In this document: positions 3,027 through 29,753 of the stretch, in pieces
Numbering within the stretch: position 1 is the stretch's first letter
Layout: each line of letters opens with the position of its first letter
NCBI GenBank assembly: GCA_045644325.1
Contig: JAZRGT010000010.1
Coordinates: forward strand, 48,596-112,595
Source of the DNA: Eubacteriales bacterium
Lineage (GTDB): Bacteria > Bacillota > Clostridia > Oscillospirales > CAG-272
Length of the DNA stretch: 64,000 nucleotides
Reading direction: 5' to 3'
Made by a program: the position numbers and the translations under genes
Notes under the pieces: generated by a model
What the model was told of the DNA's origin: nothing
The model's database searches: none
What the model saw: only the letters and a program-made list of their open reading frames with translations

Positions 3027-3033
3027 AAATTCA

Positions 3034-3067
3034 ATCCGGATACAAATTTTTTGTATCCGGATTTTTC
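3034..3067 (+). terminator. rho-independent terminator after the M23 gene
   Basis: Stem atccggatacaa/ttgtatccggat followed by ttttc. Confidence 0.75.
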
Positions 3068-3117
3068 TAATTAACGCTTGCACATTGTGAACTATTTGTG
3101 AATTGTTCAAAAACATC

Positions 3118-3146
3118 TTGACAACAAGAACGATTTGTGATATTAT
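3118..3146 (+). promoter_or_regulatory. sigma-A type promoter of the T-box operon
   Basis: TTGACA (3118-3123), exact 17-nt spacer, TATTAT (3141-3146). Confidence 0.7.
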
Positions 3147-3164
3147 TTATATATATTTTAATAC

Positions 3165-3420
3165 AAAGGCATTGATCGGGATAGCGTGAAATAAGGATGT
3201 TACAGAGAGCCGTTGTCAGGTGAAAAACGGTACGGACTGTTTCGCGCAAGTCACTCGGGAGCCGAGGAAAAGAAAGCTGATTTCAGCCGTAGAATTCCTC
3301 CGTATGACTGCGTTAAAGTCTATAATAAGCGGCGCACACGCGCAATTTGAGTGGTACCGCGGGTTATGAATTTTCGTTCAGCTCGTCTCAAGATTTTTCT
3401 TGGGGCGAGCTTGCTTTTTT
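3165..3420 (+). promoter_or_regulatory. T-box leader (tRNA-sensing transcription attenuator), probable valine specifier
   Basis: AG box AGAGAG (3204-3209). Distal loop with GGTGAAA. Conserved T-box sequence AATTTGAGTGGTACCGCG (3344-3361). Terminator hairpin gctcgtctcaag/cttggggcgagc (3381-3410) plus T-run (to 3420). The Stem I layout can be aligned to the B. subtilis glyQS leader. Confidence 0.85.
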
Positions 3421-3429
3421 GGAGGTAAA

Positions 3430-5712
3430 ATGAACAGCATTTACGAAATTGACAAACAAATCAAAGCGATGGCGGGCAGAATTGCCGCGCTACGCGAAAT
3501 AGAAGGATATACAGCCGAATATATGGCCGAACGCACAGGTGTTACCGTTTCGGAATATCTCGATTGCGAGGCGGGTCGCGCAGACCTCACCTTTGCCTTT
3601 CTCTTCCGCTGTGCTTCGGCGCTCGGAATCGACGTTACCGAAATTATTGAAGGTACTGCGCCGAGATTGAAATCCTATACGCTTACGCGCAAAGGCAAAG
3701 GTCAGCGTATCGAGCAGGCACACGGAATGACCTATTACAATATCGCTCATTCCTTTGCCGACAGAACCTCGAACCCCCTTTACGTCCACTGCGAGTATTC
3801 CGCTAAGGCAGAGGAAAGTCCCATTGCCGTTACTTCTCACGAAGGTCAGGAATGTGACATTGTAATCAAAGGTAAGCTCAAGGTACAGATAGGCGAGCAT
3901 ACAGAAATCCTCGAGGAAGGTGACAGCATTTATTATAACAGCTCCACTCCTCATGGAATGATCGCACTCGGAGGCGAGGATTGTTATTTCTATGCAATCG
4001 TTCTTCTCCCCGACGAGAACAAAGAATCTGCATCCACAGTTAAGATCGAAGCCGCTCCCGCCAAAAAGCGAGATACCGAGGCGCGTGTTTACAACAAGTT
4101 TATCACCACCGAAGAGGATGAATTCGGCGCACCTCTTTCGATCACTTATAAAGGCGAAAACAGCTTCAACTTTGCATACGATGTAGTTGACGCTCTCGGC
4201 AGAACCAAGCCCGATAAGCTTGCTATGATGCATATCGGTGAAGACGGAACAGAGACGCGCATTACCTTTGCTCAGATGAAAAGAGCAAGCGCACAGTGTG
4301 CAAACTACTTCAAGTCGCTTGGCATCAAGCGTGGCGACAGAGTTATGCTAGTTCTCAAGCGCAGATACCAATTTTGGTACGCTATGATTGCGCTTCACAA
4401 GCTTGGAGCTATCGCTATTCCAGCCACCAATCAGCTTAAGACGCATGACTACGAATACAGATTCAAAACTGCGGGAGTTAAAGCAATTATTTGCGTTAAT
4501 GACGATTACGTCATCGAGCAGACAGAAGAGGCTCTCGTGACCAATCCCGACGTTGCTATCAAGATCCTTGTTGGCGGCGAGCGTGACGGTTGGAGAAACT
4601 TCAACGAAGAGTACACCCTCTTCAGCAGTCACTTTGACAGAACCGATGATTCGCCTTGCGGTGATGATCCCATGCTTATGTACTTCACCTCGGGTACATC
4701 AGGTTATCCCAAGATTGCGCTTCACAATTACAAATATCCTCTCGGACATTTCCATACCGCAAAATATTGGCATTGCGTAAATCCCGACGGTCTCCACCTC
4801 ACGATTTCGGATACCGGTTGGGCAAAAGCAATGTGGGGTAAGCTCTACGGTCAGTGGCTCTGCGAAGCAGCTATCTTCGTATACGACTTCGATAGATTTG
4901 ATGCAGCAAAGATTCTTCCTCTCTTCAGAAAGTACAATATTACTACTTTCTGTGCACCTCCCACAATGTACAGAATGATCATTAAGGAAGATCTTTCCAA
5001 ATACGACCTCAGCTCTATCGAGCATGCGACCATCGCGGGCGAAGCGCTCAACCCCGAGGTATTTCGTCAATTTGAGAAGCAGACCGGTCTTAAGATAATG
5101 GAAGGATTCGGTCAAAGCGAAACAACTCTTGTTATCGGTAATCTTGCCGGAAGATCTCACAAGATCGGTTCTATGGGCAAGCCCGTTCCTACCTACAACG
5201 TTGATCTCTTTGATCCAGAGGGCAACACAGTCGGCATCGGTACTCCCGGTGAGATCGTTATTCATACCGAAAACGGCGCACCTTGCGGTCTCTTCTGTCA
5301 GTATTATAATGACGTCGAAAAGACCTCAGAGGTTTGGCACGACGGCATTTATCACACGGGCGACCTTGCTTGGCGTGATGAGGACGGATTCTTCTGGTAC
5401 GTTGGACGTGCAGATGACGTAATCAAGTCCTCCGGATACCGCATCGGCCCGTTCGAAATCGAAAGCGTTATTATGGAGCTTCCTTACGTTCTCGAATGCG
5501 GTGTATCCGCAGCCCCTGATGAGATCAGAGGTCAGATCGTCAAGGCAAGCATTGTCCTTACCAAGGGAACGGTGCCTTCGGATGAGCTCAAGAAGGATAT
5601 CCAGAATTACGTCAAGAAGCGCACCGCGCCTTACAAATATCCGAGACTCGTTGAATTCAAAACAGAGCTCCCCAAGACGACCAGCGGAAAGATTATCCGC
5701 AGTAAGCTTTAA
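3430..5712 (+). CDS. XRE-HTH / cupin / AMP-forming acyl-CoA synthetase fusion protein (medium- or branched-chain acyl-CoA synthetase type)
   Basis: N-terminal HTH (YTAEYMAERTGVTVSEYLDCEAG). Cupin core (SHEGQECDIVIKGKL...GDSIYYNSSTPHG). Adenylation motifs YFTSGTSGYPK, GFGQSETT, YHTGD, GRADDVIKSSGYRIGPFEIES and PKTTSGKIIR. The true start is ATG 3430 behind GGAGG (3421-3425); the track start 3400 lies inside the T-box terminator. Confidence 0.85.
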   Translation: MNSIYEIDKQIKAMAGRIAALREIEGYTAEYMAERTGVTVSEYLDCEAGRADLTFAFLFRCASALGIDVTEIIEGTAPRLKSYTLTRKGKGQRIEQAHGMTYYNIAHSFADRTSNPLYVHCEYSAKAEESPIAVTSHEGQECDIVIKGKLKVQIGEHTEILEEGDSIYYNSSTPHGMIALGGEDCYFYAIVLLPDENKESASTVKIEAAPAKKRDTEARVYNKFITTEEDEFGAPLSITYKGENSFNFAYDVVDALGRTKPDKLAMMHIGEDGTETRITFAQMKRASAQCANYFKSLGIKRGDRVMLVLKRRYQFWYAMIALHKLGAIAIPATNQLKTHDYEYRFKTAGVKAIICVNDDYVIEQTEEALVTNPDVAIKILVGGERDGWRNFNEEYTLFSSHFDRTDDSPCGDDPMLMYFTSGTSGYPKIALHNYKYPLGHFHTAKYWHCVNPDGLHLTISDTGWAKAMWGKLYGQWLCEAAIFVYDFDRFDAAKILPLFRKYNITTFCAPPTMYRMIIKEDLSKYDLSSIEHATIAGEALNPEVFRQFEKQTGLKIMEGFGQSETTLVIGNLAGRSHKIGSMGKPVPTYNVDLFDPEGNTVGIGTPGEIVIHTENGAPCGLFCQYYNDVEKTSEVWHDGIYHTGDLAWRDEDGFFWYVGRADDVIKSSGYRIGPFEIESVIMELPYVLECGVSAAPDEIRGQIVKASIVLTKGTVPSDELKKDIQNYVKKRTAPYKYPRLVEFKTELPKTTSGKIIRSKL

Positions 5713-5714
5713 TT

Positions 5715-6389
5715 ATGGAAACCAAACGATTAACCCTATTTGCGGGTCATTACGGCAGCGGCAAAACGAACGTCGCCTTGAATTACGCCTTTAATTTGCG
5801 TAAGCAGGGATACGATACCGTCATCGCCGATATTGATACTGTAAATCCGTATTTCAGAACAAAAGACAGCGCAGCAGAGCTTAAGGAAGCAGGAATAGAT
5901 CTGATAGCCTCCGAATTTGCGGGGTCCAACGTCGACCTTCCTGCTCTTCCGGCGGCAATGTACGATATTATATTTCAGTCGGAAAAATACGCAGTAATTG
6001 ATATCGGAGGTGACGATCGAGGTGCATTCGCACTCGGAAGATATACACCCGAAATACTGCGAGAAAACAATTACAATATGCTGATGGTCATTAATATGTA
6101 CCGTCCGCTGACTTCCACGCCCGAAGACACCGTTGAGATCCTAAAAGAAATCGAGGCGGCTTCCGGAATACCTTTCAACGGACTTGTGAACAACTCAAAT
6201 TTAGGTCCCTCAACAGATATCGAGACAATAGAATCGTCTTTAGCGTATGCTAAAAAAGTTTCGGAGCTTTCCGGACTGCCTATCGTAGCAACGAGTTGTC
6301 CCGATAGTGATGTGTTTTCAACCTTTGAGGGATTCGGAAACGAATACGGCGAAGTTATCAAACTCAAACTCCAAAACAAAATCATATAA
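5715..6389 (+). CDS. P-loop NTPase (MinD/ParA/CooC-like superfamily), function unknown
   Basis: Walker A GHYGSGKT near the N-terminus and a Walker-B-like VIDIGGDD. It starts 2 nt after the synthetase stop codon. Confidence 0.55.
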   Translation: METKRLTLFAGHYGSGKTNVALNYAFNLRKQGYDTVIADIDTVNPYFRTKDSAAELKEAGIDLIASEFAGSNVDLPALPAAMYDIIFQSEKYAVIDIGGDDRGAFALGRYTPEILRENNYNMLMVINMYRPLTSTPEDTVEILKEIEAASGIPFNGLVNNSNLGPSTDIETIESSLAYAKKVSELSGLPIVATSCPDSDVFSTFEGFGNEYGEVIKLKLQNKII

Positions 6390-6400
6390 GGAGAACAGAA

Positions 6401-6607
6401 ATGGCAAAATTAACTTTTAACATTGAAAAATGCAAGGGCTGCGGACTTTGCGTATCTGCTTGCCCCAAGCACTTGCTCATAGTGTCTAAATCCAAGATCA
6501 ACCAGAAGGGACATTACGTTGCTGAAATCACCGATATGGAATCCTGTATCGGATGCGCATTCTGCGCTACTATGTGTCCCGATTGCATAATCAAGGTAGA
6601 AAAGTAA
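6401..6607 (+). CDS. 2-oxoacid:ferredoxin oxidoreductase delta subunit (2x[4Fe-4S] ferredoxin)
   Basis: Two CxxCxxCxxxCP motifs (CKGCGLCVSACP; CIGCAFCATMCP). AAGGAG RBS. Confidence 0.85.
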   Translation: MAKLTFNIEKCKGCGLCVSACPKHLLIVSKSKINQKGHYVAEITDMESCIGCAFCATMCPDCIIKVEK

Positions 6608-6619
6608 GGAGAAATTAAA

Positions 6620-7678
6620 ATGGCTGATAAAGTTTTAATGAAGGGCAACGAAGCCATAGCTGAAGCGGCTATAATGGCAGGTTGCAGACACTATTTTGGA
6701 TACCCCATTACTCCTCAGACCGAAATTGCCGCTTATATGGCTAAGAGAATGCCTAAGATCGGCGGTACCTTCCTTCAGGCTGAGAGCGAAGTTGCGGCTA
6801 TTAATATGGTTATAGGCGTTGCTGCTGCAGGAAAAAGAGTAATGACCTCGAGCTCCAGCCCCGGAATCTCGCTGAAGGCTGAAGGTATTTCCTACCTCGC
6901 AGGATGCGACCTTCCCGCACTCATCATCAACGTTCAGCGCGGCGGCCCCGGTCTCGGCGGCATTCAGCCCTCGCAGTCCGACTATTTCCAGGCAACAAAG
7001 GGTGGCGGACACGGTGATTTCAGAAACATCGTTCTCGCTCCCGCTTCAGTTCAGGAAATGGCAGATCTCACTGTCAAGGGATTTGATCTTGCTGACAAAT
7101 ACAGAATGGTAGCAATGATCCTCGCTGGCGGTACTATGGGTCAGATGATGGAGCCCGTTTCTCTTGATGTTTCCGAGCAGGCTACATACGAGAAGCCTTG
7201 GGCTGTTACTGGCACCAAGCTCGAGCGCAAGCACAATATCGTGAACTCTCTCTCTCTCGTTCCCGAGGAGCTTGAGCGTTTCAATTTCGAAAGATACAAC
7301 AAATATAAGACTATTGAAGAGAATGAAGTTCTTGTTGAAGAATATATGACAGAGGATGCAGATATCGTTCTCGTCGCTTACGGCATCGCGGCTCGCGTTT
7401 CCAAAAATGCAATCGCAGCAGCTCGCGCAGAAGGTATCAAGGTTGGTCTCGTTCGCCCCATCACTCTCTGGCCTTTCCCCAAAGCAACTCTTGAGAAGCT
7501 TTCGCACACAGCAAAAGCATTCATTTCAGTCGAAATGTCTATGGGTCAGATGATAGAGGATGTTGAGCTTGCAACCAGATGCCGCAAGCCCGTACTCCTC
7601 TGTAACCGTTCGGGCGGTATGATCCCCACTCCCGAGGCAGTTCTCGCTAAAATCAAAGAAGCAGGAGGTATTAACTAA
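6620..7678 (+). CDS. 2-oxoisovalerate-type 2-oxoacid:ferredoxin oxidoreductase alpha subunit (VorB-like)
   Basis: N-terminus MKGNEAIAEAAIMAGCRHYFGYPITPQTEI is typical of the alpha subunits. Gene order is delta-alpha-beta-gamma. Confidence 0.8.
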   Translation: MADKVLMKGNEAIAEAAIMAGCRHYFGYPITPQTEIAAYMAKRMPKIGGTFLQAESEVAAINMVIGVAAAGKRVMTSSSSPGISLKAEGISYLAGCDLPALIINVQRGGPGLGGIQPSQSDYFQATKGGGHGDFRNIVLAPASVQEMADLTVKGFDLADKYRMVAMILAGGTMGQMMEPVSLDVSEQATYEKPWAVTGTKLERKHNIVNSLSLVPEELERFNFERYNKYKTIEENEVLVEEYMTEDADIVLVAYGIAARVSKNAIAAARAEGIKVGLVRPITLWPFPKATLEKLSHTAKAFISVEMSMGQMIEDVELATRCRKPVLLCNRSGGMIPTPEAVLAKIKEAGGIN

Positions 7679-8421
7679 TGGTAGTTTTTGATAAACCGCA
7701 TGCGCTGACAGATGCACCTCTGCATTACTGTCCCGGATGCACACACGGCATCATCCACCGTCTCGTTGCTGAAGCAATTGATGAATTCGGCATCGAAGGT
7801 AAGACAATTGGTATCGCACCCGTTGGATGCTCGGTAATGGCATATAACTATTTTGCTTGCGATATGGTTCAGGCAGCTCACGGCCGCGCTCCGGCTGTTG
7901 CAACCGGCGTTAAGAGAGCTAATCCCGATAATATCGTATTTACATATCAGGGTGACGGCGACCTTGCTTCTATCGGTATGGCAGAAACCGTTCACGCTGC
8001 TACGAGAGGTGAGAATATCACCATAATCTTCGTTAATAATGCAATCTATGGAATGACCGGCGGTCAGATGGCTCCTACCTCTCTTCCCGGTCAGGTAACT
8101 CAGACCTCCCCTTACGGACGTGATATTAACTCCGCAGGCTACCCCATCAGAGTTTGCGAAATGCTTGCTCAGCTCGATGGCGCTGCTTATCTTGAACGAG
8201 TTGCCGTAAACAACGTAAAGAACGTTCGAAAAGCTAAAGCCGCAATCAAGAAGGCTTTCGAAAATCAGATCAACGGCGTAGGCTTCTCGCTTATTGAAGT
8301 AGTTTCGACTTGTCCTACCAACTGGGGACTTACCCCTGAGGGCGCGCTTCAGTTCGTTGAAGAAAAGATGATTCCTTATTACCCCCTCGGCGTATATAAG
8401 GATAAGACCAAGGAGGCGTAA
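7678..8421 (+). CDS. 2-oxoacid:ferredoxin oxidoreductase beta subunit (TPP-binding)
   Basis: CPGC Fe-S ligands and TPP motif YQGDGDLASIG...NNAIYGMTGGQ. The start overlaps the alpha stop (TAATG). Confidence 0.85.
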   Translation: MVVFDKPHALTDAPLHYCPGCTHGIIHRLVAEAIDEFGIEGKTIGIAPVGCSVMAYNYFACDMVQAAHGRAPAVATGVKRANPDNIVFTYQGDGDLASIGMAETVHAATRGENITIIFVNNAIYGMTGGQMAPTSLPGQVTQTSPYGRDINSAGYPIRVCEMLAQLDGAAYLERVAVNNVKNVRKAKAAIKKAFENQINGVGFSLIEVVSTCPTNWGLTPEGALQFVEEKMIPYYPLGVYKDKTKEA

Positions 8422-8423
8422 CG

Positions 8424-8960
8424 ATGAAGACTAATCAGATTTTGATTGCCGGCTTCGGCGGTCAGGGTGTCCTCTTCACCGGCAAAATGCTTGCATATAA
8501 GGGTATGTACGAGGGCAAGGAAGTAAGCTGGCTTCCTTCATATGGACCCGAAATGCGTGGCGGAACCGCTAACTGCAGCGTTATCCTCAGCGATACTCCC
8601 GTTGGATCGCCTATCGTATCCAATCCCGATATTCTTCTCGTAATGAACCTTCCTTCGCTTGATAAGTACGAAAATTCTGTACCCGCAGGAGGCAAGATTT
8701 TTGTAGATTCTACCTTTATCGAGCGCAAGGTCGAGAGAGACGACGTTGACGTATATTATATTCCCGCAACCAAAATTGCTTCTGACGCAGGCGTTCCCAC
8801 CCTTGCTAATATGGTTCTTCTCGGTAAGGTTATCAAAGAAACGGGTGTTATCAGCCTCGAAGGTATGAGAACAATGTTCGAAAAGATCATTTCCGCAAAG
8901 CGTCAGAACCTTATTGACACCAATCTCGCTACAATCGAACTCGGTTATAACTTTCAGTAA
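8424..8960 (+). CDS. 2-oxoacid:ferredoxin oxidoreductase gamma subunit
   Basis: GFGGQGV motif and a size of 178 aa typical of gamma subunits. AAGGAGG RBS. Confidence 0.8.
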
Positions 8961-8980: not shown

Positions 8981-10045
8981 ATGGATATCAAAATAGAAAA
9001 GATCGCCGTTCCCAAGCAGAAGCCAGATGAATCCGCCCTTGGTTTCGGACAGTACTTCACCGATCATATGTTTATTATGGACTACACTCGCGAAAAGGGC
9101 TGGCACGATGCTAGAATCGTTCCTTTCGGAAACCTCTCGCTCCATCCCGCGTGCACTGTATTCCATTACGGCGCTGAAATCTTCGAGGGTATGAAGGCAT
9201 ACAGAACCGCTGACGGTTCGATTCAGCTTTTCAGACCCGAGCAGAACTTTGCTCGACTCAACTCTTCTGCAGAAAGAATGAGACTGCCTCTCGTTGATGA
9301 GGAATTTGCACTTAAAGCGCTTACTGAACTCATCAAGATCGATGCCGATTGGGTTCCTCACGCTCCCGGAACTTCGCTTTACATCCGCCCTTTCCTCTTT
9401 GGAGCAGACCCCAAGCTTGGAGTTCACTCGATTGACAGATCCGTATTCATCATCATTCTCTCCCCTGTTGGTTCTTACTACAAGGAAGGTATCAACCCCG
9501 TTAAGATTATGATCGAAACCGAGGACGTCAGAGCCGTAAAGGGCGGCACGGGTTACACCAAGTGCGGCGGTAACTACGGAGCTTCCAACAGAGCGGGCGA
9601 AAAGGCAGAGCAAGCAGGCTACTCGCAGGTACTCTGGCTCGACGGTGTTGAGCGCAAGTACATTGAGGAAGTTGGCGCAATGAACGTAATGTTCAAGATT
9701 GACGGCGAAATCGTCACTCCCGCGCTCACCGGTTCTATTCTTCCCGGCATTACGAGAAAATCTATTCTCCAGATTCTCCGCGATGAGGGTGCGAACGTTT
9801 CCGAAAGACTTCTTTCTATCGATGAGCTTATCGAAGCGCTTGAAAACGGCAAGCTTGAAGAAGGTTGGGGTTGCGGTACTGCGGCGGTAGTTTCTCCTAT
9901 AGGTCAGCTTTACTACAACGGAAAGACTTACACGATCAATGACAACAAGATCGGCGAAACCACACAAAAGCTTTACGATACTCTCACAGGCATTCAGTGG
10001 GGCAGAATCGAAGATACAAGAGGCTGGGTATATCCCATCAAATAA
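8981..10045 (+). CDS. ilvE: branched-chain amino acid aminotransferase
   Basis: 354-aa class IV aminotransferase. FGQYFTDHMF, HYGAEIFEGMKAY and GGTGYTKCGGNYGAS resemble the long-form IlvE (YbgE/YwaA type). Confidence 0.85.
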   Translation: MDIKIEKIAVPKQKPDESALGFGQYFTDHMFIMDYTREKGWHDARIVPFGNLSLHPACTVFHYGAEIFEGMKAYRTADGSIQLFRPEQNFARLNSSAERMRLPLVDEEFALKALTELIKIDADWVPHAPGTSLYIRPFLFGADPKLGVHSIDRSVFIIILSPVGSYYKEGINPVKIMIETEDVRAVKGGTGYTKCGGNYGASNRAGEKAEQAGYSQVLWLDGVERKYIEEVGAMNVMFKIDGEIVTPALTGSILPGITRKSILQILRDEGANVSERLLSIDELIEALENGKLEEGWGCGTAAVVSPIGQLYYNGKTYTINDNKIGETTQKLYDTLTGIQWGRIEDTRGWVYPIK

Positions 10046-10146: not shown

Positions 10147-10641
10147 ATGATTATTCGAAAAGCTTGCATTAACGATCTGAAACAGATTTCTGATATTTAT
10201 GAAAGTGCGCGCAAATTTATGAGTGCTAACGGAAATCCCAATCAATGGGGAAGAACGAATCCGCCTTATTCTCGCACCGAAGAAGATTTAAGAGAAAATA
10301 ATCTTTATATCGTTGAAGAGGGGTGCGATATACTGGCTGTGTTCTATTACAATTTTGCAGACGACCCGACTTATAAGATTATATATGGCGGCAAGTGGCT
10401 GAATGATCGCCCGTACGGCGTCATACACAGAATAGCAGTTTCCGATAAGGCGCGAGGAAAAGGCGTTTCGGGGATTTGCTTTGATTTTGCTTTTAGTAAT
10501 TGTAATAATTTGAAAATCGACACGCATAAAGATAATATCCCCATGCAGAAAGCTTTAGCAAAGCACGGATTTATTAGATGCGGAATAATCCATCTTGCTA
10601 ACGGAGACGAAAGAATTGCTTTTCAGAAATCGGAGGACTAA
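10147..10641 (+). CDS. GNAT family N-acetyltransferase
   Basis: 164 aa with acetyl-CoA-binding loop RGKGVSG and a typical GNAT size and beta-bulge region. Confidence 0.75.
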   Translation: MIIRKACINDLKQISDIYESARKFMSANGNPNQWGRTNPPYSRTEEDLRENNLYIVEEGCDILAVFYYNFADDPTYKIIYGGKWLNDRPYGVIHRIAVSDKARGKGVSGICFDFAFSNCNNLKIDTHKDNIPMQKALAKHGFIRCGIIHLANGDERIAFQKSED

Positions 10642-29494: not shown

Positions 29495-29570
29495 TGGAGC
29501 TGCTAATCAGAGTCGAACTGATGACCTCATGCTTACCAAGCATGTGCTCTACCAACTGAGCCATAGCAGC
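29495..29570 (-). tRNA. tRNA-Thr (anticodon GGU), CCA encoded
   Basis: 76-nt cloverleaf folded by hand. Acceptor GCTGCTA/TAGCAGC, D arm GCTC-AGTTGGTA-GAGC, anticodon arm CATGC-TTGGTAA-GCATG, T arm ATCAG-TTCGACT-CTGAT, then T-CCA. Confidence 0.9.
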
Positions 29571-29677: not shown

Positions 29678-29753
29678 TGGAGCTGCTAATCAGAGTCGAA
29701 CTGATGACCTCATGCTTACCAAGCATGTGCTCTACCAACTGAGCCATAGCAGC
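29678..29753 (-). tRNA. tRNA-Thr (anticodon GGU), CCA encoded, identical to copy 1
   Basis: 76/76 identity to 29495-29570, so the cloverleaf is the same. Confidence 0.9.

Follow-up and report, generated by a model that had tools for sequence, protein, structure and literature searches.

Positions 3430-5712 of the window (the whole 64,000-nucleotide stretch of DNA that was analyzed) hold one unbroken open reading frame, from the ATG at 3430 to the stop codon at 5710-5712, which encodes a single protein of 760 amino acids. The start given by mechanical ORF calling, a TTG at 3400, lies within the terminator of a T-box leader and is not the true start. The region upstream of the gene contains the following elements:

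3033-3063, bidirectional, no strand assigned: terminator-like hairpin, a perfect stem of 14 bp with a T run after it, which ends the upstream M23 peptidase unit
3084-3141, plus strand: three TTTGTGA(A/T) direct repeats, including a 13-nt pair, GAAC(T/G)ATTTGTGA, at 3089-3101 and 3128-3140
3118-3146, plus strand: sigma-70-type promoter, TTGACA, a 17-nt spacer and TATTAT with a TG extended -10 (11/12 matches)
3163-3393, plus strand: T-box leader RNA (Rfam RF00230, 97.6 bits against a cut-off of 93, full model 1-219)
3250-3252, plus strand: valine specifier codon GUC in the specifier loop of Stem I, with a purine after it (RF00230 alignment and comparison of about 80 orthologous leaders)
3350-3361, plus strand: T-box core sequence AGUGGUACCGCG, where the tRNA 3' end pairs with the antiterminator bulge (RF00230 alignment)
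3380-3421, plus strand: intrinsic terminator of the T-box, a 14-bp stem and a U tract (hairpin analysis; the terminator is also given as 3380-3411)
3421-3425, plus strand: ribosome-binding site GGAGG, 4 nt before the ATG and directly after the T-box terminator (read in the sequence)

The 5' edge of the locus is set by the hairpin at 3033-3063. As a canonical T-box, the leader has a covariance score above the gathering threshold, a specifier codon for valine, the T-box sequence and a terminator, and in this it resembles the leaders of the T-box-controlled branched-chain amino acid operons of Firmicutes. These elements are conserved: the specifier reads GUA, GUC or GUG in all of about 80 orthologous leaders, the T-box core motif lies upstream of 79 of 82 fusion-gene loci, and the promoter core TTGACA-N17-TGTGATATAAT is also found upstream of about 70 orthologous loci.

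A Pfam scan of the 760-residue protein gave four domains, all above the cut-offs: HTH_3 (residues 18-72, E = 6.6e-7), Cupin_2 (residues 134-190, E = 2.3e-12), which contains GDSIYYNSSTPHG at 164-176, AMP-binding (residues 258-615, E = 3e-61, 207.7 bits against a cut-off of 29.9) and AMP-binding_C (residues 676-754, E = 4e-20, 72.9 bits against 24.5). This result bears out the preliminary description of the protein, made from the sequence alone, as a fusion of a helix-turn-helix (HTH), a cupin and an acyl-CoA synthetase (ACS). The regions of the protein are encoded as follows:

3430-3663, plus strand: residues 1-78, XRE-type five-helix HTH-like domain with a net charge of -6 and the recognition helix at residues 38-49 (Pfam, AF2 and charge analysis)
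3664-4014, plus strand: residues 79-195, beta-hairpin (92-104) and cupin barrel (Pfam, alignments and AF2)
4015-4137, plus strand: residues 196-236, linker, poorly conserved (within-type identity about 0.35) and of low AF2 confidence
4138-5409, plus strand: residues 237-660, ACS N-terminal (adenylation) domain, with motif A3 at 420-428, W447 and A465 (codon 4822-4824)
5410-5712, plus strand: residues 661-760 and the stop codon, ACS C-terminal domain, with motifs A8 and A10 (K754)

In the AF2 model, the HTH-like domain has helices at residues 2-25, 29-36, 40-47, 55-65 and 69-74, with the beta barrel after them, and the linker leads into a diverged ACS N-terminal segment with the motif FIxxxEDENG. 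The full-length model has a pTM of 0.65 and low pLDDT at residues 75-115 and 193-210, so that the confidence in the domain packing is moderate.

The same four domains are present in all of the best 120 protein clusters, at lengths of 759-787 aa, and, among 593 related stretches in reference genomes, each of the 80 best spans residues 1-760. More than 120 protein clusters, and at least 80 species of Clostridia from gut and rumen, have this architecture. Because it recurs across clusters and reference genomes, the fusion is no artefact. A frameshift or an assembly join between two genes, which had been named at the outset as a possible refutation, is ruled out by the unbroken reading frame and by the recurrence of the architecture in at least 80 genomes; the HTH-cupin-ACS fusion is a genuine conserved protein of gut bacteria. 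An apparent natural split copy in one relative proved to result from the loss of one nucleotide within a run of A (GAAAAC to GAAAC), and short matches that looked like stand-alone modules were mostly fragments ending at contig edges or had an uninformative gene context. In the papers searched, neither this fusion nor a T-box-controlled operon of the kind described below is directly described.

In the ACS half, we read each of the ANL core motifs A3 (TSGTSGYPK, residues 420-428), A5 (GFGQSET), A7 (YHTGD, residues 641-645), A8 (GRADDVIKSSGYRIGPFEIE) and A10 (PKTTSGK, with K754 as the catalytic Lys) in the sequence and found them invariant among homologues, in alignments of 12 and of 49 sequences; they had been described as intact, and they are. 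Among solved proteins, the best match is MacsMa of Methanosarcina acetivorans (PDB 3ETC), which aligns end to end with the full ACS half (E = 1.5e-193) and has all of the ANL motifs in common with it. W447 aligns with Trp259 of MacsMa, the alternative pocket Trp. The preferred substrate of MacsMa is 2-methylbutyrate, and Trp259 has a role in its pocket (PMC10455477). In their solved or curated forms, both MacsMa and the S. aureus enzyme MbcS differ from the window protein in standing alone, without an N-terminal HTH-cupin. The best NCBIfam match, MbcS (NF047394), scored 442 bits against an equivalog cut-off of 850, which leaves the protein outside that family. The identification of the enzyme half as a Macs-type branched short-chain acyl-CoA synthetase is well supported. 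Because the enzyme scores under the MbcS cut-off, the assignment of its substrate rests on the gene context and on one pocket residue.

This context is provided by the genes that follow:

5715-6389, plus strand: CbiA/ParA-like P-loop protein of 224 aa, between the ACS and oxidoreductase genes (Pfam CbiA, 24.9 bits, just under the cut-off)
6401-8960, plus strand: 2-oxoacid:ferredoxin oxidoreductase (VOR) genes (Pfam and synteny)
6401-6607, plus strand: VOR delta (Fer4, ferredoxin; Pfam)
6620-7678, plus strand: VOR alpha (Pfam)
7678-8421, plus strand: VOR beta (Pfam)
8424-8960, plus strand: VOR gamma (Pfam)
8981-10045, plus strand: class IV (branched-chain) aminotransferase, BCAT (Pfam Aminotran_4, E = 6e-32; synteny)

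The CbiA-like gene keeps its place in most of the VOR-linked loci, with 46-82% identity, and its product gave no match to the PDB or to curated families. A GNAT gene at 10147-10641 was considered as an acetyltransferase partner of the ACS and rejected, as it is syntenic in no relative. Genes for acid activation, a four-subunit oxidoreductase and a branched-chain aminotransferase are co-located, as in a reductive route. It is long established that anaerobes of the rumen and gut require isobutyrate, 2-methylbutyrate and isovalerate, or make use of them, for the branched-chain amino acids, and reductive carboxylation of branched short-chain acids has been described in rumen bacteria. The window gene set (ACS, VOR delta, alpha, beta and gamma, BCAT) matches their classical isobutyrate-to-valine route. 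The gene order and the valine T-box fit this route, provided that flux runs in the direction of synthesis: uncharged tRNA-Val would gate transcription of the operon through the T-box, the ACS, as the first enzyme, would convert isobutyrate to isobutyryl-CoA, VOR would carboxylate this reductively to 2-ketoisovalerate, and BCAT would transaminate the latter to valine. The T-box match and the downstream genes bear out the place that the preliminary description had given the ACS, at the head of a T-box-controlled VOR pathway. Adjacency to VOR genes, a question raised there, is not universal: the fusion gene precedes VOR and BCAT genes in 45 of 60 loci, and no conserved downstream partner was found in the other 15. 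The setting of T-box, VOR and BCAT points to amino-acid synthesis and not to fatty-acid priming, and whereas the usual T-box-controlled ilv and leu operons of Firmicutes encode the acetolactate pathway, the T-box in the window would govern a salvage route.

The relatives differ from those operons in a further respect: their tandem ACS paralogues, which feed one common VOR, each have a T-box of their own, one for Ile and one for Val. Many of them carry a tandem paralogue whose leader is an isoleucine (AUC) T-box, and such a T-box precedes 43 of the 44 tandem upstream paralogues. Within the enzyme domains, the sole position that tells the paralogues apart is residue 465, in the acyl pocket. It is Ala in 72 of 73 Val-type proteins, including that of the window, and Gly in all 36 Ile-type proteins; MacsMa, like the Ile-type paralogues, has Gly. 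Judged from the Val T-box and from A465 as against G465, the window enzyme is probably an isobutyrate-CoA ligase.

The remaining differences between the paralogues are concentrated in the N-terminal module. Thirteen of the 14 discriminating positions fall within residues 11-117. Paralogue-specific residues of the hairpin and cupin are 97, 98, 100, 102, 117, 118 and 142, the strongest being 97, 98, 100 and 102; further positions lie in HTH helices 4-5 and the linker (46, 53-54, 59-60, 72-73 and 78). As a fraction of within-type identity, between-type identity amounts to 0.64-0.68 in the HTH and hairpin, 0.81 in the cupin core and 0.95-0.99 in the ACS domains, and the ACS halves of tandem paralogues look homogenized, with a same-locus identity of 0.90 in the C-domain. 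The earlier suggestion of a layer beyond the T-box agrees with these data insofar as the N-terminal module adds something: it is under strong purifying selection and holds nearly all of the residues that separate the Val and Ile types.

Within this module, the metal triad H137/E141/H175 (codons 3838-3840, 3850-3852 and 3952-3954) and the GD and PH motifs are invariant in 59 diverse members with 35-60% identity. The best PDB profile match of the module was HppE, over its full length (E = 1e-12), followed by MPnS, and the best fold matches were 1y9q, the top one, which is annotated as an HTH_3 regulator, and HppE, to which the identity is 17-23%. Besides 1y9q, the only solved proteins that combine an HTH-like alpha domain with a cupin beta domain are HppE, Psf4, HEPD and MPnS; the H-x3-E...H triad aligns with theirs, and H137, E141 and H175 align with the iron ligands of HppE, a 2-His-1-carboxylate arrangement. 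The TM-scores to the HppE-type enzymes are only 0.4-0.5 because the orientation of the domains differs. HppE, a metalloenzyme, has a similarly acidic HTH-like alpha domain in which the equivalent of the recognition helix is acidic too, and this domain is not known to bind DNA. Hairpin positions 97, 98, 100 and 102 align with what we take to be the substrate-proximal hairpin of HppE.

Such likenesses would be expected if the module were a second catalytic domain, an HppE-like mononuclear-metal enzyme that isomerizes, epimerizes or edits branched acids, acyl-CoAs or 2-oxo acids within a bifunctional protein, and a close operonic link to an enzyme, or fusion with one, is what consecutive steps of a pathway typically show. 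We consider this reading very unlikely. The predicted pathway from acid to amino acid needs no added step, least of all for achiral isobutyrate; the chemistry of HppE, HEPD and MPnS needs O2 or H2O2, whereas the hosts are gut and rumen anaerobes; no phosphonate biosynthesis genes are present near the locus; and the identity to HppE is low. Moreover, the non-catalytic regulators PuuR and SutR have the same triad. Because they do, the H/E/H triad separates no models, and we rejected it as a discriminator between enzymes and regulators.

The module could also be a structural scaffold that senses nothing and holds the synthetase as a dimer or tetramer. HppE, an enzyme on this two-domain scaffold, forms a homotetramer (PMC9088020), and its N-domain superposes on Xre dimers (PMC3406030). 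Discriminating positions 46, 53-54, 59-60, 72-73 and 78 are typical dimer surfaces, and, because the ACS halves of the tandem paralogues look homogenized, insulation of the interfaces would be useful. In that case the paralogue-specific residues could form an oligomer interface that prevents mixed Val/Ile oligomers, which counts against reading them as parts of a sensor. Even so, a pure scaffold seems improbable to us: the invariance of the triad and of the GD and PH motifs implies a conserved ligand or metal site, the strongest discriminating positions lie on the hairpin that presumably corresponds to the substrate-proximal one of HppE, and MacsMa and other Macs-type enzymes work without such a module.

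The nearest non-fused relatives of the module are 184-aa proteins. In 69 of 70 loci, the gene for this split form is followed on the same strand by a Macs-type ACS (48-58% identity), with a median gap of 21 nt, and the pairing was also found in 3 of 3 cultured or MAG genomes. This XRE-cupin clade always accompanies this type of ACS, either fused to it or as a separate 184-aa upstream gene within one operon, a constant pairing that is missed by the preliminary premise that HTH-cupin proteins are normally stand-alone. The succession of an XRE HTH and a cupin is evident from Pfam, from AF2 and from a distant full-length match to PuuR, which lies far under the model cut-off. Known XRE-cupin transcription factors (PuuR, SutR/YdcN, PsdR, PauR and ErfA) resemble the split form in the two-domain build, in size (about 185 aa) and in conserved gene pairing, and in PuuR and SutR the His/Glu/His cupin positions are conserved as well. 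Such factors are local repressors of an adjoining metabolic gene and form conserved regulator/target pairs with it (PMC7901475), and for this reason the 69/70 adjacency is equally expected for a repressor. In the window lineage, unlike in these factors, the module is covalently joined to the enzyme.

The preliminary description had proposed a trigger enzyme that itself binds DNA. In this case the split form would autoregulate the xre-cupin/acs operon in response to a branched acid, and the fused enzyme would bind its own promoter atop the T-box, in the manner of BirA or PutA. BirA is an adenylate-forming ligase, and BirA, PutA and NadR all join a DNA-binding-type fold to an adenylate-forming or metabolic enzyme. 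The acyl-CoA synthetase FadD1 of P. aeruginosa has been reported to bind DNA as a transcription factor (PMC12754631). The Pfam matches to HTH_3 and Cupin_2, the top fold match to 1y9q and the distant match to PuuR are in line with this proposal. In BirA, PutA, NadR and FadD1, however, DNA binding is demonstrated and the operators are known, whereas the chemistry of the window HTH argues against it. The net charge of the HTH ranges from -3 to -14 across the family (mean -5.9), acidic in every member, compared with +1 for PuuR, +4 for SutR and +3 for 1y9q, and the helix2-turn-helix3 segment carries -3 to -5 against 0 in the controls. The recognition helix reads V-S-E-E-E-Y-x-x-C-E-x-G, with Glu at positions 40-42, where 434-type repressors read bases; this is not the neutral or basic surface with a polar or basic recognition helix that is compatible with DNA. 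In the Val type, E42, Y43 and E47 are invariant, while the residues at positions of base contact are free to vary within each type, and the paralogue-specific residues avoid the recognition helix. We infer that the HTH has turned acidic and has most likely lost the ability to read DNA.

The TTTGTGA repeats flank the window promoter, in the region proposed at the outset as a candidate operator, and the third copy overlaps the extended -10. They are kept in one close relative (L004, 90% protein identity), which favors a repressor, and are absent in another (L005, 76%) and in remoter loci. As a family-wide operator they were rejected, since one copy is the TG extended -10 common to all promoters and the upstream copies are gone at 76% protein identity; they may be a lineage-specific operator of the window and L004. 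No operator-like motif or palindrome is common to the upstream regions of about 80 fused or 77 split loci, a negative result of little weight, since an operator may change together with the recognition helix that reads it. Enrichment analysis of k-mers and inverted repeats upstream of the 77 split loci yielded nothing above the AT-rich background; perfect 8-nt inverted repeats occur at 11 of them, against 4.6 expected (maximum 10), without a common sequence. The fused clade, furthermore, already has a dedicated transcriptional switch in its T-box. With an acidic HTH and no family-wide operator, control through DNA binding appears unlikely. The fallback offered at the outset, a decayed HTH kept only as structure, comes closer to the evidence and yet does not go far enough, as the module clearly has a function and is specific to its pathway.

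Taken together, the data are best explained by a conserved fusion of a putative isobutyrate-activating enzyme with a pathway-specific ligand-sensor module that would act on the enzyme, a reading to which we give nearly an even chance, the sensor being its conditional part. The cupin would bind a pathway-specific small molecule at its His/Glu/His metal site, candidates being the cognate amino acid, its 2-oxo acid, the branched acid or the acyl-CoA, and the ligand-bound module would modulate the attached synthetase post-translationally. End-product feedback on the ATP-consuming committing step would be the most natural logic, and the second regulatory layer would then be allosteric, not transcriptional. 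We extend this view, tentatively and with rather less than an even chance of being right, to the whole XRE-cupin clade (more than 5,700 clusters): its members would have given up DNA binding, would have become obligate partner subunits of branched short-chain acyl-CoA synthetases or, in gut Clostridia, domains fused to them, and would bind a small ligand at the metal site. In the fused Val/Ile pairs it would be the module, not the catalytic domain, that carries the pathway specificity, senses the cognate amino acid or its precursor and gates the ATP-consuming first step allosterically.

The acid-activating enzymes for branched acids in anaerobes, and their control, remain poorly defined. The locus described here is a complete and testable gene set, in which ACS, VOR and BCAT come with amino-acid-specific T-boxes, and it offers a simple prediction of specificity, Ala versus Gly at residue 465. 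Either outcome for the module would be informative. If it binds DNA, we would have a new trigger enzyme of the BirA type, acting on top of a riboswitch. If it is a sensor that does not bind DNA, thousands of annotations as "XRE family transcriptional regulator" or "cupin domain-containing protein" beside AMP-binding genes would be wrong, and a new mode of ACS control would stand besides lysine acetylation. Should the sensor reading hold across the clade, a regulator would have been exapted from transcription to the direct control of an enzyme, alongside a T-box of matching specificity.

The gene at 3430-5712 is an unbroken reading frame that runs from ATG 3430 to a stop codon at 5710-5712 and encodes a product of 760 aa. 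Because a GGAGG at 3421-3425 lies directly 3' of the T-box terminator (3380-3411), ATG 3430 is taken as the true start; the TTG at 3400 of the mechanical ORF call falls inside that terminator and was rejected. The preliminary description of the product as a helix-turn-helix (HTH), a cupin and a complete acyl-CoA synthetase (ACS) is borne out by Pfam domains that all score above their curated cut-offs (HTH_3, 18-72; Cupin_2, 134-190; AMP-binding, 258-615; AMP-binding_C, 676-754) and by the ANL motifs A3, A5, A7, A8 and A10, which are intact and invariant across homologues. A frameshift or an assembly join had also been considered there, and we found neither: the same four domains recur across protein clusters and across species genomes. 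They are present in all 120 best clusters of a 5.8-billion-protein collection (759-787 aa, at least 66% identity), and the best 80 of 593 related stretches, found when a single genome of each species was scanned, all span residues 1-760. The sources of these 80 are all gut or rumen Clostridia MAGs, with Oscillospiraceae, Acutalibacteraceae, Christensenellales, Ruminococcus, Faecousia and Saccharofermentans among the taxa, and NCBI labels the fusion proteins merely "AMP-binding protein". What looks like a natural split of a paralogue in the related locus L003 (7001-9294), with an HTH-cupin of 238 aa and an ACS of 518 aa, was rejected: one A is missing from a run (GAAAC instead of GAAAAC), and the break is evidently a frameshift or an assembly error. 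In a distant fused homologue of 758 aa (P0274), the A3/P-loop is degenerate, with FLQSYSYGMAKPV instead of FTSGTSGYPK, and further core motifs are altered; this protein may be a pseudoenzyme that still carries the HTH-cupin module.

The fusion gene is preceded and followed by these features of the window:

3033-3063, bidirectional terminator, 5' of the promoter
3084-3141, three TTTGTGA(A/T) direct repeats flanking the promoter
3089-3101 and 3128-3140, a 13-nt pair GAAC(T/G)ATTTGTGA within the TTTGTGA repeats
3118-3146, strong promoter TTGACA-17-TATTAT with TG
3163-3393, T-box leader, 97.6 bits in Rfam against a cut-off of 93
3250-3252, T-box specifier codon GUC, with a purine next
5715-6389, CbiA/ParA-like P-loop protein of 224 aa, between the ACS and the ferredoxin of the 2-oxoacid:ferredoxin oxidoreductase (VOR)

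The T-box core motif lies 5' of 79 of 82 fusion genes, and the specifier position in about 80 orthologous leaders is GUA, GUC or GUG, which is always valine; Rfam confirmed the leaders of three related loci (L004, L009 and L016). Downstream of the fusion gene follow the CbiA/ParA-like gene, a 2x[4Fe-4S] ferredoxin, VOR alpha, beta and gamma, and a class IV (branched-chain) aminotransferase (BCAT). Whether the fusion always sits next to VOR genes had been left to a survey, and the answer is that it usually does but not always: among the 60 genomic loci that extend 2.5 kb or more downstream, the block of CbiA-like protein, ferredoxin and VorABG, usually with the BCAT, is directly 3' in 45, and the neighbours in the remaining 15 are unrelated and variable. 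Most loci with VOR have the CbiA/ParA-like protein at this same place (46-82% identity); its Pfam CbiA score is just below the cut-off, it has no match in the PDB or in curated NCBIfam models, and it may act in the maturation of Fe-S clusters or of VOR. A GNAT acetyltransferase gene (10147-10641) 3' of the aminotransferase shows synteny in 0 of 80 related loci and is probably unrelated to control of the ACS via lysine acetylation. Farther along the window are two tRNA genes, 29498-29570 and 29681-29753 (-), 183 nt apart and with equal Rfam scores (72.4 bits).

MacsMa of Methanosarcina acetivorans (PDB 3ETC) matches residues 244-760 over their entire length (E = 1.5e-193), and W447 of the fusion protein aligns with MacsMa Trp259. 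The preferred substrate of MacsMa is the branched acid 2-methylbutyrate, and an alternative Trp259 shapes its acyl pocket (PMC10455477). The top NCBIfam model is MbcS, the branched short-chain acyl-CoA synthetase of S. aureus, at 442 bits; this is below the equivalog cut-off of 850, so the enzyme is outside curated MbcS membership. By its sequence, the enzyme half would work like MbcS and Macs. The natural reading of this enzyme together with a valine T-box, VOR and BCAT is synthesis of valine from isobutyrate, in which the ACS would convert isobutyrate, ATP and CoA to isobutyryl-CoA, VOR would carboxylate this reductively to 2-ketoisovalerate, and transamination would yield valine. Isobutyrate to valine through these two intermediates is the classical rumen route. 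Our literature search found no paper that describes an ACS/VOR/BCAT T-box operon.

The window has only this valine (Val-type) copy. Directly upstream, 44 loci have another full-length fusion gene, whose product is 59-65% identical to the window protein, as in two examples among loci L004-L083:

L009, 5408-7654, upstream paralogue
L016, 435-2681, upstream paralogue

The upstream paralogue has its own T-box in 43 of the 44 loci, with the isoleucine specifier AUC (Ile-type), and one such leader also exceeds the Rfam cut-off (L016 132-374). Comparison of 73 Val-type with 36 Ile-type proteins revealed 14 positions that are fixed differently, 13 of them in residues 11-117 and a single one in the enzyme. 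This position, residue 465, lies in the motif DTGW(A/G)K of the A4 region; 72 of the 73 Val-type proteins have Ala there, and all 36 Ile-type proteins have Gly. Its equivalent is Gly in MacsMa and, in Salmonella acetyl-CoA synthetase, Val310, which presumably lines the acyl pocket. We predict a one-methyl difference in pocket size that would match isobutyrate versus 2-methylbutyrate. Between-type identity divided by within-type identity gives 0.68 (HTH), 0.64 (hairpin region) and 0.81 (cupin core), versus 0.95 and 0.99 for the N- and C-domains of the ACS. Furthermore, in 33 loci with tandem pairs, the ACS C-domains of the same locus are more alike (0.90) than those of same-type orthologues between species (0.86), whereas the N-modules of these pairs are only 0.42-0.56 identical, a pattern that hints at gene conversion confined to the enzyme half and sparing the N-module. 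Each paralogue would therefore owe its identity to its T-box, its N-terminal module and residue 465. A third kind of T-box, with the leucine specifier CUG, was seen in L016 (9833-10078, +) and in L003 (3647-3890, -), where it is 5' of a LeuA/HMGL-like gene and another fusion of at least 837 aa, AP_endonuc_2 (TIM barrel) plus AMP-binding; many loci also have a distant AMP-binding gene nearby (about 24% identity), and the system may include a leucine arm.

The N-terminal module has a large family of relatives. Among 1.84 billion representatives, searched exhaustively with a profile, there were 7,492, of which 156 were at E <= 1e-30; a few fusions head the list, and then come mostly stand-alone proteins of 182-190 aa. 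The stand-alone family exceeds 5,700 clusters at E <= 1e-20. Its hosts include the cultured Clostridia C. thermosuccinogenes and Pseudobacteroides cellulosolvens, and its annotation is transcriptional regulator or cupin protein. An AMP-binding gene of about 550 aa follows on the same strand in all three genomes inspected. Likewise, of 70 metagenomic loci that extend far enough downstream, 69 have a same-strand AMP-binding gene at this place. These enzymes are of the same Macs type and share 48-58% identity with the enzyme half of the window protein; the P. cellulosolvens one has 55% across 519 residues. The short intergenic gaps (median 21 nt; 40 nt or less in 56 of 73) indicate that the paired genes are co-transcribed, and none of three split pairs tested has an upstream T-box. 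A diverged junction motif, FIxxxEDENG, is common to the fused proteins and is missing from the split ACS genes, which suggests one ancient fusion event.

Canonical XRE-cupin factors are palindrome-binding dimers that act as local repressors of adjoining metabolic genes, in conserved regulator/target pairs (PMC7901475). Adjacency alone thus cannot tell a repressor from a partner subunit, and the HTH itself has to be considered. It is acidic in every member, with a net charge of -6 in the window protein, -1 to -10 (mean -5.8) in 109 fused proteins and -3 to -14 (mean -5.9) in 59 fused and split members, whereas the HTHs of the experimentally studied E. coli regulators PuuR and SutR are at +1 and +4. 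The helix2-turn-helix3 segment carries -3 to -5 in the module clade, compared with 0 in both E. coli proteins and +3 in the uncharacterised structure 1y9q. The sequence of the recognition helix is V-S-E-E-E-Y-x-x-C-E-x-G, and E42, Y43 and E47 never vary among Val-type proteins; at the base-reading positions of 434-type repressors, the residues are Glu or freely variable within each type. We found no shared operator in the fused loci, which have only the TTGACA-N17-TGTGATATAAT promoter in common, and no shared k-mer or palindrome above the AT-rich background upstream of 77 split loci. The TTTGTGA repeats recur in L004 (90% protein identity) and are absent from L005 (76%) and beyond; they may be a lineage-specific site for some factor or reflect mere low divergence. 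Taken together, the acidic HTH, the lack of a shared operator and the solved relatives make it fairly probable that the module has lost DNA binding. A DNA-binding trigger enzyme or local repressor, which the canonical factors and the repeats would favor, is unlikely.

The solved relatives are headed by HppE (E = 1e-12, full length), the top PDB match of the family profile, followed by 1y9q (2e-11) and methylphosphonate synthase (MPnS). Residues 1-200 gave a confident AF2 model (pLDDT 88.9), with which Foldseek retrieved 1y9q (1.9e-14), HppE (about 1e-13), and HEPD and MPnS (1e-11 to 1e-9). HppE, an Fe(II) enzyme, forms homotetramers whose subunits combine an all-helical alpha domain with a cupin beta domain (PMC9088020); the former can be superposed on Xre dimers (PMC3406030). 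The recognition-helix equivalent of HppE, ETPETVAAWENG, is acidic like that of the module; that of 1y9q, VSKAMLGQIERG, is not. All of 59 members with 35-60% identity have the triad His137/Glu141/His175, which matches the iron ligands of HppE in the alignment, a correspondence expected of a second catalytic domain of the HppE type. The same triad is present in PuuR and SutR; it appears to mark a site, shared by the whole class, where a metal helps to hold a ligand, and in itself it does not speak for catalysis. We regard a second catalytic domain as improbable. The AF2 model places the strongest paralogue-specific residues (Val/Ile-type A/E97, H/D98, M/I100, Y/I102, L/Y117 and C/F142) on beta-hairpin 92-104 and the strand after it. 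In the alignment with HppE, the counterpart of this hairpin is the stretch that holds Arg97 and Tyr102/103/105 and presumably closes over the substrate. The diverged residues would serve to insulate the paralogues if the module were a purely structural oligomerisation scaffold; with the predicted ligand site in the same module, we consider this doubtful.

Each part of the system is of a known kind: an ANL synthetase, an XRE-cupin module, a T-box and VOR. In the literature searched, we found no description of an acidic-HTH XRE-cupin clade obligately paired or fused with Macs-type synthetases, of tandem Ile and Val T-box paralogues feeding one VOR, of paralogue identity concentrated in a non-catalytic module, or of the predicted Ala/Gly pocket switch at residue 465, and all four appear undescribed. 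Our preferred explanation is a module that would bind a small molecule specific to the pathway and directly control the attached synthetase. The identity of the ligand, its effect on catalysis and the module-enzyme contact are what we infer here; in the full-length AF2 model, confidence in the domain packing is moderate (pTM 0.65), with low pLDDT at 75-115 and 193-210. Valine end-product feedback on the ATP-consuming first step would be the most natural logic, and it would complement the T-box, which senses the charging of tRNA-Val.
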